A stretch of DNA of 64,000 nucleotides, taken from the NCBI GenBank assembly GCA_963422205.2, contig CAXMWX010000001.1, positions 448,001 to 512,000 on the forward strand. Direction: 5' to 3'. This document shows, piece after piece, positions 8,580 to 12,378 of this stretch; position 1 is the stretch's first letter; each line of letters opens with the position of its first letter. The stretch is from Gammaproteobacteria bacterium. Lineage in GTDB: Bacteria > Pseudomonadota > Gammaproteobacteria > Eutrophobiales > Eutrophobiaceae. The position numbers and the translations under genes were made by a program. The notes under the pieces are model-generated. The model was not told where the DNA came from and did no database searches. It saw nothing but the letters and a program-made list of their open reading frames with translations.

Positions 8580-10151
8580 TTAAAATAAACTTGGGACATG
8601 ACAGGCCATACCAGGTTTACGTTTTTGTATTTGGCAGGTGTTTCCCGACATATCCAATGATACACTTTCAATGATACACTTTTCCTCATTGAAGATAAAA
8701 TGGATCGAGAGACAGTTACTAGCATTGCTTTTGCCTAGTGTGATATGCGGTTCGAAAAGTCGTCTTGAACCCTTATAGAGGAATTTGTAACGCTCTCCGT
8801 ATTTGCCTTTGGTGGTTGGCGAAATCCTACGCTTGGCGGGCAAGTTACGTTTCTTGAGATTCTTAATTACACTCCCGATACTCGCCCCGGTATTTTGTTG
8901 TCCCTGCAACTCGCCAGTGATTTCATTGATATCCCTTAGCGCCTCAAATACTTCACCAGGGCGTTGATAAGGACTGTCATTAGCGGCCTCAACGGCTGAT
9001 GGAAGGATTTCTATAGTATCGGAATACAACTCGGCGGCCCTCTCTACCGCTTCAGCGACTGATGAGATAGGAATTTCTTTATCTGTGAGGAATTCATTTA
9101 TCGGATTCGACAATATGACCTGTTGGTTAGCCCGCAGGTTCGCATTCTCATTTTCCAGTTCTTGAATCTTTTTTTCGTATTCATTCAACTTACGCAGATC
9201 ACTTTCGTATTCATCCAAGAATTCGTTAGTATTTTTCTCCTTTATCTCCTCAAGCCTTTTTCGTCGCTCTGCGGCCTCTGCCTCCTGGATTACTTTTGTA
9301 ATTCGCTGATCTGGCACGAAGCCATAGGCTGCCACTGAAAACACTGCACGCTCTATTGCCTTCATGGCAGCAGTTCCACCCACCTGTTTAATCCAGTCGC
9401 CGAAGAATAAACGATGTTTTTTAGGATAATCTTCTTTCGAGAAACCAGGCCAATATATGCGTGCTGCTCCATTAAAACAGGAAAGCTGTTGGCCAACCTT
9501 GTCGCTGAAATTCCATGTAACTCTCGGTTCGTCAAAACAACATACTATCGCCACGCCAGCAAGATTTTCAGCCAGTTTTTTCGCATCAATATGGTTTTTG
9601 TTGACACTATCATACGGCGATAAAAGCACGACTGGAAGCTGTCGGCGGCTACTTGCAAGCAATACCAGCAAATCATCCAAGTCATGCCATCCTAATAGAT
9701 GGAGTGCAGCATGTACCCACCTGTCGTTGACAAAAACAGAGGTTTGCATGCAAATATCACGAACGACACGAGGCGAACCAATAGCCGGCCTCTCAGGCGT
9801 AACCACGTAGTCCAGGAACTCAACATGTATTAGATGTTCAACACTGCAATCATCTTCAAACTGCCCAATCCGAATATTGTTTAACCACTGAAGGTTATCG
9901 TCATTTTGTCTGGGGTAGCGCCATGACAGGCTGATGACATTCCCCGCATCGCTTTCGTATAACCTTGATTCAAGGCGGTGATGTTCGGGTAAATTCTCAG
10001 CTTGAGAGGTCTTTGGGTCGAAATTAAACTCAGTTATCTTGTGGCCTTCACGATAATGGTTTACTACCCAGTCACGGTAGGCATTGGAAACAGTAGTGAT
10101 CCCTGCTTTGTCATGAACTTCAAATCTGCATGCGTAGAGAAGTTGAGCCAT
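8580..10151 (-). CDS. Accessory hypothetical protein with coiled coil and putative RelE-like C-terminal domain; C-terminus frameshifted
   Basis: 523-aa ORF, visibly more AT-rich than flanks; coiled-coil stretch; 14-bp tandem duplication near the 3' end. Confidence 0.75.
   Translation of the reverse strand: MAQLLYACRFEVHDKAGITTVSNAYRDWVVNHYREGHKITEFNFDPKTSQAENLPEHHRLESRLYESDAGNVISLSWRYPRQNDDNLQWLNNIRIGQFEDDCSVEHLIHVEFLDYVVTPERPAIGSPRVVRDICMQTSVFVNDRWVHAALHLLGWHDLDDLLVLLASSRRQLPVVLLSPYDSVNKNHIDAKKLAENLAGVAIVCCFDEPRVTWNFSDKVGQQLSCFNGAARIYWPGFSKEDYPKKHRLFFGDWIKQVGGTAAMKAIERAVFSVAAYGFVPDQRITKVIQEAEAAERRKRLEEIKEKNTNEFLDEYESDLRKLNEYEKKIQELENENANLRANQQVILSNPINEFLTDKEIPISSVAEAVERAAELYSDTIEILPSAVEAANDSPYQRPGEVFEALRDINEITGELQGQQNTGASIGSVIKNLKKRNLPAKRRISPTTKGKYGERYKFLYKGSRRLFEPHITLGKSNASNCLSIHFIFNEEKCIIESVSLDMSGNTCQIQKRKPGMACHVPSLF
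8655..8682. repeat. 14-bp perfect tandem duplication (CAATGATACACTTT)x2
   Basis: Read directly at 8655-8668 and 8669-8682. Confidence 0.95.
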
Positions 10152-10348
10152 TTGGTGATCCCATATTCACAATCGACTGCTTTAATAGTACCACGAAAAG
10201 TGTATGTATAACTTCAGAAACACACTGCACTACTCAGAGAGAAAGCGAGAGCACTATCAGCATATAGGGTATCGAATAAAAGACTTTTATCGCACGGGCA
10301 GCCATGCAATAAGGGCGGACATGAATAATCAAATCGCCGCACAGCGTC

Positions 10349-10375
10349 CCTGCTTGCGTGCTGCGTGCAGGCAAG
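10349..10375. repeat. Palindromic micro-insertion, family A (CCTGCTTGCG..TGCAGGCAAG), 27 bp
   Basis: Removing it restores QRLSVLRFWDKHG. Confidence 0.7.
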
Positions 10376-10432
10376 TCAGTGTGCTTAGATTCTGGGACAA
10401 GCATGGCCTGACCCGCCCTTGACCACAGTGGC

Positions 10433-10455
10433 AGTGGTTCGACAAGCTCACCCAC
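10433..10455 (+). repeat. Micro-insertion, family B (TGGTTCGACAAGCTCACC core)
   Basis: Reverse complement of the copies at 11139 and 11186; removal gives DHSG-QSRRTLY. Confidence 0.8.
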
Positions 10456-10695
10456 CAGAGCCGCCGTACCCTGTATGCCTGGCGCAAAGCCTACCGCGAG
10501 TGGGGACTGTCTGGCTTGTGTCCGACCCCCAAAGCACCGAAGCGCACTCGCCGCTGACCACAAGCGGTTATCCAGCAGATACGCCAACGGCGCCAAGACC
10601 TGCCCAATCTGGATAAAGAGCAGTGTCAGGTACTGCTCAGATCCTGGTGTCAGGCCAGGGGATTGCCCTGTCCCAGTACTTCGACCATTGGCCGC

Positions 10696-10721
10696 CCTGT
10701 CTGTGCGGGTACGCAGACGGG
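10696..10721. repeat. Palindromic micro-insertion, family A (CCTGTCTGTG..CGCAGACGGG), 26 bp
   Basis: Removal restores STIGR-LIAD and repairs a frameshift. Confidence 0.8.
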
Positions 10722-11138
10722 CTGATTGCCGATACCCCCGACAAGAGGCGAATCTCACCCCCGGCCTTGAGCCCGAAGGGGAAAGCCAAAGCCTATCGAA
10801 GAACCCCCGTCACACGCCGCCCTAAAGGCTATCGCCCCAGCCAGATTGGCGAGTGTGTGGGACTGGACGCCATCGAGCGGCGTAGGCAGGTGGCCGGGGG
10901 GTATCTCCTCACCTCTATTGACGAAGCCAGTGGCTATGCCTTAGTCCTGGCGGTGCCGAAACGGAGCAGCCAAGCTGCCAGAGACTTCTTTGAGACGTGT
11001 TTCCGCTTGACCCCCTTCCCCATCCAGCAGGTGATTACCGACAGTGGCGTTACGTTCAAGGGCGCGTTTGACCAACGGCTCAATGATAGTCAGATCCTGC
11101 ATCTATACACCTATCCCAAAACCCCCAAAATGAATGCC

Positions 11139-11161
11139 GTGGCTGGTGAGCTTGCCGAACC
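11139..11161 (-). repeat. Micro-insertion, family B (GGTGAGCTTGCCGAACC)
   Basis: Removal restores KMNA-ICERSNRT. Confidence 0.8.
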
Positions 11162-11185
11162 ATCTGTGAGCGTTCTAATCGCACC

Positions 11186-11210
11186 ATGGTTGGTGAGCCT
11201 GCCGAACCAT
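11186..11210 (-). repeat. Micro-insertion, family B (GGTGAGCCTGCCGAACCA)
   Basis: Removal restores NRT-IQ. Confidence 0.8.
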
Positions 11211-11294
11211 ATCCAGTACAACAAAAAGGGCAATATAGTGGTGGGCGCATACATGGGATTGACTTATTTATCGTAAAAGTGCAGTCTTCACGTC

Positions 11295-11555
11295 ATGAAC
11301 ACGGTGGCTTTTGATACGCATCACTTTGTCAAGCGGCTGACCGAGGCCGGGATGCCGGAGCAACAGGCCGAAGTGCTGGCCGAGGAACAGACGCACCTGA
11401 TCGAAAGCCACCTGGCCACCAAGCAGGACATCAAAGAACTTGAAGCGCGACTCCGGCAAGATATTGCCGAGTGCAAGACGGATATTGTCAAATGGATGTT
11501 TGCCGCGCTGATAGGCCAGGGCGGCCTTATCGTTGCCCTGATCAAGCTGCTCTAG
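11295..11555 (+). CDS. DUF1640/CCDC90-family membrane-anchored coiled-coil protein, short stalk
   Basis: FDTHHFVKRLTEAGM head, LATKQDI neck, KWMFAAL.. C-terminal TM. Confidence 0.88.
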   Translation: MNTVAFDTHHFVKRLTEAGMPEQQAEVLAEEQTHLIESHLATKQDIKELEARLRQDIAECKTDIVKWMFAALIGQGGLIVALIKLL

Positions 11556-11638
11556 GTCGGGCGCCTCTGTCACTGGCTAACGCCCTTTACCTTCCATCGC
11601 CGTTGACTTGTTTATCGTAAAAGTGCAGTCTTCACGTC

Positions 11639-11965
11639 ATGAACACGGTGGCTTTTGATACGCATCACTTCGTCAAGCGGCTGACCGAGGCCGGGATGCC
11701 GGAGCAACAGGCCGAAGTGCTAGCCGAGGAACAGACGCACCTGATCGAAAGCCACCTGGCCACCAAGCAGGATATCATTGAGGTGAAGCGCGAGATCAAG
11801 GCGCTGGAGACGCAGCTGACTACCAACATCAAGGCGCTGGAGACACGCCTAACCGCCGAGATCACCGCGCGGATTGCCGAGTGCAAGACGGATATTGTCA
11901 AATGGATGTTTGCCGCGCTGATAGGCCAGGGCGGCCTTATCGTTGCCCTGATCAAGCTGCTCTAG
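11639..11965 (+). CDS. DUF1640/CCDC90-family protein, long stalk
   Basis: Same head and anchor; 22 extra residues with 11-aa repeats (IKALETQLTTN/IKALETRLTAE). Confidence 0.88.
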   Translation: MNTVAFDTHHFVKRLTEAGMPEQQAEVLAEEQTHLIESHLATKQDIIEVKREIKALETQLTTNIKALETRLTAEITARIAECKTDIVKWMFAALIGQGGLIVALIKLL

Positions 11966-12378
11966 GTCGGGCGCCTCTGTCACTGGCTAACGCCCTGCAC
12001 CTTCAGTAACGCAATAACGCCCGTTGGCCCGCCATCCGTTTCAGGCGCAAGTGACATGCTGCACCATTTTTCGGGATTGCAGTATCCATGCTTTCCCTCA
12101 AGGGGCTGATCACGGGATTGGCCGCCATCGCCGGGCTTTACTGTGGCTTGGGCGGGCAGATGACGCTGACGTTTTTGTCGGATTTTAAGAAGAAGTACCC
12201 AACCAATCCGGTGGCCGCTGGTGAAACAGACAGAGAACAGCGACGGGTTCACGGCAGGCACCCCCATCCATGGATGTGGTTTTAACAGCAGAACACGCTA
12301 CAATAGGATTGAGATGTTGCCAGATACTGCCCGGCATGGGGTTATCCGGCTGATCCGACCTTAAACAGACGATGCGCT

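Follow-up and report, generated by a model that had tools for sequence, protein, structure and literature searches.

Introduction

Insertion sequences (IS) of the IS200/IS605 group and the systems formed by repetitive extragenic palindromes (REPs) and REP-associated tyrosine transposases (RAYTs) handle single-stranded hairpin DNA. The small dispersed repeats (SDRs) of heterocystous cyanobacteria, reportedly described by Elhai and colleagues in 2008, are said to be 21-27 nt long, to share a hairpin, to insert into one another, to sit inside minitransposons and to be confined to one cyanobacterial subgroup, and short tandem repeats have reportedly been seen around them. The Rickettsia palindromic elements (RPEs), which Ogata and colleagues are said to have reported in 2000, reportedly measure ~100-150 nt and occur in Rickettsia only. 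REPs are also present inside coding regions in several species, in the account of Di Nocera et al. (2013, PMC3733652), and a further enzyme-repeat pair is presented by Chenal et al. (2025, PMC11893778), in which Ssn nucleases of the GIY-YIG type belong with NTS/SRM sequences, ~30-nt hairpin repeats of many phyla that are recognised as single-stranded DNA. Here, we analyse a window of 64,000 nucleotides (the whole stretch from position 448,001 to 512,000 of contig CAXMWX010000001.1, assembly GCA_963422205.2, of a gammaproteobacterium), in which an IS481-like insertion sequence at 10205-11253 carries a transposase gene interrupted by five short segments of two families, A and B. These five segments are probably fossils of two mobile-element families, both ultra-small and gene-less; they were acquired before the insertion sequence spread and may have been mobilised in trans.

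Relation to described repeat families

Family A is 26-30 nt long, mostly 27 or 30 nt, and consists of a 5' CCTG followed by an imperfect hairpin, while in family B, whose unit has 23 nt, TGGTT/AACCA ends enclose the core GAGCYTGYCGAA. With a length range of 23-30 nt, these elements are among the smallest DNA that looks mobile. As REPs and REPINs are portrayed in the sources cited here (PMC3733652; PMC3116915; Bertels & Rainey 2011), family A resembles them in being a short imperfect palindrome after an unpaired tetranucleotide, and in being dispersed, free of target duplication and sometimes intragenic. It differs in beginning with CCTG (GTAG lies near the end of 1 of the 114 genome matches listed, CGTC of 3 and GACG of 3) and in occurring across phyla at 13-61 copies per genome, where REPs number hundreds per genome. 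Moreover, the genome studied here has no RAYT gene, and A does not flank intact Y1 genes in the 20 loci considered below. Unlike REPINs, which are inverted doublets, A copies are single hairpins, often nested, and in this genome they lie only inside mobile elements.

The likeness to SDRs, as these have reportedly been described, lies in small size and in self-nesting, A being nested in another A, in either orientation and typically at the loop, in 29 of the 114 matches listed. Family A and family B differ from SDRs in being present in many phyla and in phage contigs. With the RPEs, as they are mentioned in PMC3733652, A appears to share, at some of its sites, the habit of inserting in frame; it differs in its length of 26-30 nt, and B, at 23 nt, shifts the frame. 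The Ssn/SRM system (PMC11893778) offers a model for an enzyme-repeat pair, but the degenerate SRM motif as published there fits none of the 151 A and none of the 121 B matches listed and nothing in the insertion sequence, and no small GIY-YIG gene resembling ssnA is associated with either family. Families A and B fit none of the GTAG, CGTC and SRM repeat classes, and we rate them as of the REP/SDR kind.

Exact-string and keyword searches, with the supplements of the REP and Ssn papers outside their reach, returned no published description of the A or B sequences; among the matches listed, only the two family A strings were represented, by unrelated primers. Literature searches by peptide motif gave nothing relevant, and those by keyword gave only general work on REPs, MITEs and HIP1. 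Rfam holds no family for the insertion sequence or for the arrays of elements, with only chance miRNA and sRNA matches far below their gathering scores. A sequencing-adapter artefact was considered and dropped, the segments having no known resemblance to adapter sequences.

Five inserts of two families in the transposase gene

The window copy of the insertion sequence contains the following features, where a slash marks the point of insertion in a protein motif.

10205-11253, plus strand: IS481-like insertion sequence copy, internally deleted (blastn copies, copy alignment, Pfam/NCBIfam)
10349-10375, plus strand: A1, family A hairpin of 27 nt, in frame, at AQR/L..FW (absent from intact homologues)
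10420-10422, plus strand: TGA stop that arises from a deletion of 2 nt in comparison with the copy on contig C12, ~28 nt upstream of B1 (copy alignment)
10435-10457, minus strand: B1, family B unit of 23 nt, at HSG/.SRRT (sequence match, homologue comparison)
10555-10557, plus strand: in-frame TGA, next base C, a Trp codon in the intact homologues G036, P0001 and P0003 (homologue comparison)
10696-10721, plus strand: A2, family A hairpin of 26 nt, frame-shifting, at IGR/LIAD (sequence match, homologues; fold z -2.75)
10722-11139, plus strand: catalytic-core segment of 139 codons, in a frame that differs from both neighbouring segments (homologue comparison, Pfam/NCBIfam)
11140-11162, plus strand: B2, family B unit of 23 nt, frame-shifting, at KMNA/.CER, three codons before the catalytic Glu (homologues)
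11187-11209, plus strand: B3/B4 hybrid unit, its left flank that of B3 and its right flank that of B4 (alignment with C3:325640-326925 and C3:436400-437010)

An earlier note on this DNA had described five micro-inserts of two families in a dead IS481 transposase, two of them flanking the region of the catalytic Glu, and had held that their excision restores the transposase motifs. The inserts, their places and the restored motifs agree with the homologues, and the note's insert coordinates were correct to within 1-2 nt. The segments are absent from all three intact homologues (an open reading frame (ORF) of the genome G036 and the database proteins P0001 and P0002), where the motifs run uninterrupted, and it is two B units that flank the Glu region. 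Since the homologues are continuous at every site (AQR/L, HSG/.SRRT, IGR/LIAD, KMNA/.CER.NR, RT/.QEQ, EQ/.VD, LAD/WLV and VQ.I/I), the segments are true insertions. Family A has two matches in the 64-kb window against 0.00 expected (100 shuffles), and the family B core has three against 0.01 expected (shuffles), at 10436-10452 (minus), 11145-11161 (plus) and 11192-11208 (plus), with B1 in the orientation opposite to that of B2-B4. The note had called both families palindromic, which is right for A only. Family A forms a hairpin with a folding energy of -6.3 to -9.3 kcal/mol (z -2.1 to -3.1), in which the leading CCTG stays unpaired (A1 folds at -8.1 kcal/mol, z -2.06); family B DNA folds at -1 to -3 kcal/mol, z +0.35 to -1.2, pairs only at its TGGTT/AACCA ends and has no convincing palindrome.

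We give almost no credence to the idea that the segments are native functional parts of the insertion sequence, such as internal transposase-binding sites. They are kept in all copies, and family B is found within this genome only in this element, as native parts would be. However, the check for the segments in intact homologous elements, which the earlier note had proposed, found them in none of the three; the same sequences recur in unrelated genes, phages and phyla, and B3 is present in some copies and absent from others.

The carrier element and the age of its inserts

The assembly of this organism (2.99 Mb in 14 contigs, 98% complete) contains seven near-full copies of the carrier at 96-100% identity and about a dozen fragments, as found by blastn against the assembly itself, and the sequence at window 10205-11253 is one copy of this repeated ~1.05-1.27 kb element. 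Its termini, TGTAYAAGTYCA.../...ATACA, are common to copies with differing flanks in the copy alignment, and terminal inverted repeats as well as multiple dispersed copies are present; by eye, the alignment reveals no clear target duplications around the copies. The core fragment scores 29.4 bits against Pfam rve (cut-off 32.6). NF033577 (IS481) is the best NCBIfam match, with 63.5 bits for the fragment, 113.6 for the G036 homologue and 188.2 for P0001, all below the cut-off of 224, and because the best model stays under its curated cut-off we name the element IS481-like; one source labels the homologue P0002 'IS481 family transposase'. A tblastn search of the assembly with the intact homologue found no intact copy of the transposase. 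The intact homologue of G036 (locus L004), a genome from another family of the same class, has 323 aa, P0001 and P0002 stand at 64-65% identity, and no closer intact relative above 67% identity was found among 5.8 billion proteins ('longer' length class). At the DNA level, 39 of 40 relatives have no match to the element, and G036 matches at 65-91% identity only.

The full-length element contains eight sites, in the order A1, B1, A2, B2, B3 (polymorphic), A3, A4 and B4. The longest copies (for example, C3:325640-326925) have inserts of 27 nt (A1), 23 nt (B1), 26 nt (A2), 23 nt (B2) and 30 nt (A3 and A4), and B4 is effectively 24 nt and in frame; B3, of 23 nt, is found in some copies only, and C3:325.9k and C7:403.4k have its site empty. 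In the copy alignment, every copy has A1, B1, A2 and B2 wherever it extends over their sites. As all copies share the inserts, the inserts are older than the spread of the element in this genome; they are fossils acquired before it multiplied, and their current number here comes from hitch-hiking on the insertion sequence and not from any activity here. Subfamilies that differ at about 20% of synonymous sites have the same eight sites in common, and a derived TGGC variant of B2 is shared by the main group of copies and the C12 copy.

These data bear on the alternative raised in the earlier note, that the insertion sequence died first and then passively gathered ordinary genomic repeats as a pseudogene under neutral accumulation. 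Such a history would fit a gene that also has a 2-nt deletion and TGA stops, but it is very improbable, because other non-coding DNA of this genome is without copies of A or B, the same eight sites are shared by the diverged subfamilies, and the selection signal described below speaks against a long neutral history.

The inserts now serve as short homologies for recombination, which has yielded deleted and chimeric copies of the insertion sequence, including the window copy. Deletions between B3 and B4 are found in the window copy and three others; the hybrid unit of the window copy marks the loss of ~209 nt, including A3 and A4, and the same joint (224->434) is present in contigs of public runs. 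Deletions between B2 and B4 are seen in C8 and C12, and those between A3 and A4 in C12 and C9:98k, while the alignment of the C7:280k copy has visible mosaic patches. At C3:59288-59352, a chimera consists of 1.0 kb from the left of the IS481-like element and the right end of an IS1595-like element, with the fusion exactly at an A hairpin, and the relative G057 has an A-A deletion in its IS1595. Three public runs were listed as containing the element, none of them of RNA. Their contigs show the known deletion joints as skips of 209, 632 and 582 nt; a joint that skips just one 23-30 nt element was absent from the three contig sets, which is uninformative either way as contigs drop rare variants. 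The copy at C3:301472-302102 has a deletion from just before A2 to just after A4, with no A copy at its junction and a diverged right flank, and it may come from a lineage without A4.

Distribution in the genome and in its relatives

All 32 matches to the family B core (with at most two mismatches) in this genome lie within copies or fragments of the IS481-like element. The 34 strict family A matches are divided among the IS481-like element (26), an IS1595-like element (6; NCBIfam IS1595), which has four distinct A sites in ~0.83 kb, and a prophage (2), where the two copies adjoin baseplate and tail-completion genes. There are thus 12 distinct insert sites in ~2.1 kb of unique IS sequence and, the prophage apart, none in the rest of the ~3-Mb genome. 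The absence of the repeats from housekeeping genes, which the earlier note had reported for the window, extends to the whole genome and to ordinary intergenic DNA; nor are they equally dense in all unselected DNA of this genome, as the 34 A and 32 B copies are all confined to the two IS families and the prophage.

Among 126 genomes of the order, family A is found in four, and family B at 32 sites in the present genome; the nine other genomes with a B match have a single site each at most. In relatives, an open 201-aa IS1595 frame holds two in-frame copies of A and an open 423-aa CRISPR ring-nuclease gene (Csm6-type) holds A in frame as well, and a methylase-like frame of G057 carries a 27-nt A. 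The counterpart of this last frame in the present genome is without the insert and forms the N-terminal region of an 821-aa DNA methyltransferase with an embedded GIY-YIG, C14:104455-107655 (L324).

The earlier note had proposed a REP-like mobilisation system that deposits hairpins preferentially in mobile DNA and may inactivate it; in its fuller form, a dedicated system would disable mobile DNA in this way as a host defence against insertion sequences and phages. Several observations are in keeping with the proposal: every copy in this genome is in an insertion sequence or the prophage, with the concentration of sites given above; copies in relatives lie in IS1595 elements, the DNA-methylase-like frame and the CRISPR ring-nuclease gene; and 37 A loci are on viral contigs. 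We nevertheless regard a defence system as improbable. The inserts are older than the spread of the insertion sequence and so did not stop it, the usual lengths of A, 27 or 30 nt, keep the frame open, A-rich genomes hold copies between long reading frames or within other A copies, no candidate enzyme is encoded in this genome, and mobile DNA passes through many hosts and hence samples more exposure. What stands of the proposal is that the inserts are genuine REP-like micro-elements and that copies in this genome are found only in mobile DNA; activity, targeting and inactivation are unsupported. Deliberate inactivation in particular finds no support: the inserts predate the spread of the element, and A copies inspected elsewhere lie between ORFs, inside other A copies or, at some sites, in frame.

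Occurrence in other phyla and in phages

A wider sample, with one genome per species, gave at least 114 genome loci for family A, with record titles from more than 25 phyla. The lengths of the 114 matches listed are 27 nt (59), 30 nt (39), 29 nt (9), 26 nt (5) and 28 nt (2). Only 10 locus pairs among them share flanks, and most A copies are therefore independent insertions. The base before A is G in 98 of the 114 matches listed, and the base after it is C or T in 91. Five genomes contain 54, 61, 31, 34 and 13 copies of A, the count of 34 being that of an unpublished genome (G150), and each has its own dominant variant, which indicates proliferation within those genomes. Nested copies make up 11 of 18 in the regions examined of A-rich genomes. 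The dominant variant of G148 has 26 nt, and the copies inspected there lie between long reading frames, at the core of concentric A half-sites; many copies of G147 are located within 300 nt of contig ends, which suggests multicopy carriers. The A copies of G151 (L368, L369) were seen inside runs of a tandemly repeated 8-nt word, a setting reminiscent of the tandem repeats reportedly found around SDRs.

Among viral records (IMG/VR), family A is present at 37 loci (24 of 27 nt, 12 of 30 nt and 1 of 26 nt) and family B at 7. Some viral A copies appear, to judge from their sequence, to sit in frames resembling capsid, terminase or exonuclease genes. In both families, insertion has exact edges and duplicates no target. 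On phage contig L087, B-filled and empty repeat units stand side by side; they differ by exactly 23 nt, placed in the middle of a 20-nt palindrome, and nothing is duplicated.

Family B has at least 121 metagenome loci. Copies of 23 nt abut directly in 7 of the 121 matches listed, and in 32 of them neighbouring units share the core TCGRCARGCTC with flanks that are different but complementary. Family B falls within a larger class of ~21-24 nt units with this core and covarying complementary flanks (L215, L228, L236, L244 and others), and units of the class often form arrays of two or three abutting units in metagenome loci.

The predominance of 27 or 30 nt, in 98 of the 114 genome copies listed and 36 of the 37 viral copies, raised the possibility that A is always a multiple of three, which the 26-nt variant of G148 rules out. 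Open frames of at least 70 codons span the element equally commonly whether its length is a multiple of three (69/98) or not (11/16), among the matches listed. Freedom of the consensus from stops in all six frames was likewise dropped as a special property, since composition-matched shuffles give ~0.3.

State of the transposase gene and the selection signal

The transposase gene is dead by ordinary criteria. The inserts split it into three frames, and, compared with the C12 copy, the main group of copies lacks 2 nt upstream of B1; it also has in-frame TGA codons. A following C makes TGA prone to readthrough, and all four in-frame TGA codons seen in the transposase copies are followed by C (window 10555-10557, the long C3 copy L028 and the C3:301.5k copy); two of the four replace a Trp of the intact homologues, and the TGA in the C-terminal segment is common to diverged subfamilies.

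The diverged copies and fragments, which carry inserts at every site they cover and differ from the main group at about 18% of synonymous sites, were compared with that group. Read in the true frame, the pooled ratio of non-synonymous to synonymous differences (pN/pS) comes to 0.28, while the two wrong frames give 1.51 and 0.99; per-copy values are 0.15-0.45. Distinct substitutions number 29, 40 and 62 at the three codon positions (p = 0.0016); because the copy pairs are non-independent, the pooled Fisher p of ~1e-16 is overstated, although the frame control is nevertheless clear. Purifying selection of this kind may mean that the inserts spread by gene conversion between copies that had already diverged, that insertion was repeated at the same sites, or that the interrupted gene kept some function, the inserts being removable.

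The last possibility can be stated more fully, namely that the micro-inserts are intervening sequences removed at the level of DNA, transcript or translation, so that the insertion sequence is throttled and not dead. In its favour, besides the selection signal and the codon-position counts, are the TGA codons followed by C, two of them at Trp codons, and at least seven near-identical copies in an assembly with no intact copy; the TGGC variant shared by the main group and C12 argues for common descent of the B2 insert, B4 is in frame at 24 nt, and the 23 nt of B1 are offset by the 2-nt deletion in the main group. We consider removal of this kind unlikely on several grounds. Recognition at the RNA level is hard to square with the inverted orientation of B1 with respect to B2-B4, the 2-nt deletion is separated from B1 by a TGA, the frame of the catalytic core is unlike that of both neighbouring segments, and patchy gene conversion from diverged, once-intact relatives, of which the C7:280k copy has the patches, could mimic the selection signal. 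By eye, there is no slippery heptamer upstream of A2 and there are no matching take-off and landing codons, and programmed frameshifting and ribosome hopping were dropped for want of such motifs. If the inserts were removable, they would be the bacterial equivalent of what ciliates have in their tiny internal eliminated sequences, and they would hold transposase expression at a trickle.

Mobilisation and proposed mechanism

Families A and B entered an ancestor of the IS481-like element at eight sites, after which the element multiplied in this genome with its inserts. For the way in which the elements were mobilised, the following course may be proposed. Insertion probably took place on single-stranded or extruded hairpin DNA, with a likely preference for hairpin apices and for a G^Y step, and it may have been catalysed in trans by an enzyme outside the coding set of this genome. 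Our best guess is a hairpin-specific nuclease-ligase, of the HUH/Y1 or another type, that phages or other hosts carry. Judged by the IS200/IS605 and REP/RAYT systems, the exact edges, the absence of duplication, the independent insertions in many lineages, the self-nesting at hairpin loops, the G^Y context and the tetranucleotide followed by a hairpin together point to an enzyme that handles single-stranded hairpin DNA. The earlier note had seen no mobilising enzyme in the window, and the whole genome likewise lacks a match to Y1_Tnp (PF01797); as no candidate enzyme is encoded there, the elements would be inert in this organism. The GIY-YIG ORFs of this genome are a methylase fusion, an SprT fusion and one of UvrC size, none with A or B nearby.

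A number of observations weigh against this scheme. The purifying selection seen in copies that share frame-breaking inserts is not predicted by a simple history in which the gene was dead since insertion. Y1_Tnp genes are present in 5/5 A-rich genomes, a figure that rests partly on the unpublished G150, but also in 6/14 control genomes. None of the 20 Y1 loci from the five A-rich genomes has an intact Y1 gene bracketed by A repeats, and G057 carries A without a Y1 gene. No link of A to GIY-YIG genes was found in this genome or in the A-rich genomes, among which G149, with 31 A copies, has no GIY-YIG match in an incomplete assembly. Targeting of a hairpin apex has no obvious fit to the eight sites of the insertion sequence, where by eye only A1 lies in a possible hairpin loop. 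The evidence for enrichment in mobile DNA comes mainly from this genome and three relatives. For the wider sample, Pfam named only 1 of 80 A-spanning frames (Transposase_mut), as against 23 of 40 random window fragments, a control that comprised the first 40 of 80 prepared fragments from a single genome and in a comparison where an insert in the middle lowers the sensitivity.

The one Y1 locus of the 20 that does hold A has a truncated IS200-like TnpA ORF of 88 aa between two A copies (L339, G149:C156:7237-10356, ~1290-1925). The spacer of this locus also holds a CGTC-tagged hairpin in the NTS/SRM style, so that several micro-repeat families are piled up. Five viral records with several A copies contain no Y1 gene.

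The arms of A and B recur unchanged across bacterial phyla and phages, insertion duplicates no target, and copies nest in their own loops; together this implies a widespread DNA-insertion activity, which probably acts on hairpins or single strands. Once identified, the mobiliser would account for a class of the smallest mobile DNAs, and it could become a new site-specific tool for work on single-stranded DNA. Such elements ride in insertion sequences and phages, break or pad genes and seed recombination that reshapes IS families, and in annotation they explain both 'shattered' transposase genes and spurious short ORFs.

Neighbouring genes

The left end of the insertion sequence is adjoined by a 523-aa ORF at window 8580-10151 (minus strand), which has a coiled-coil middle and no convincing Pfam family. 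Directly downstream of the insertion sequence, at window 11259-12004, a small coiled-coil gene (Pfam CCDC90-like, E 2.6e-10) is tandemly duplicated; the duplicated ORFs are located at 11295-11555 and 11639-11965, and the flanking repeat is 95-98% identical.

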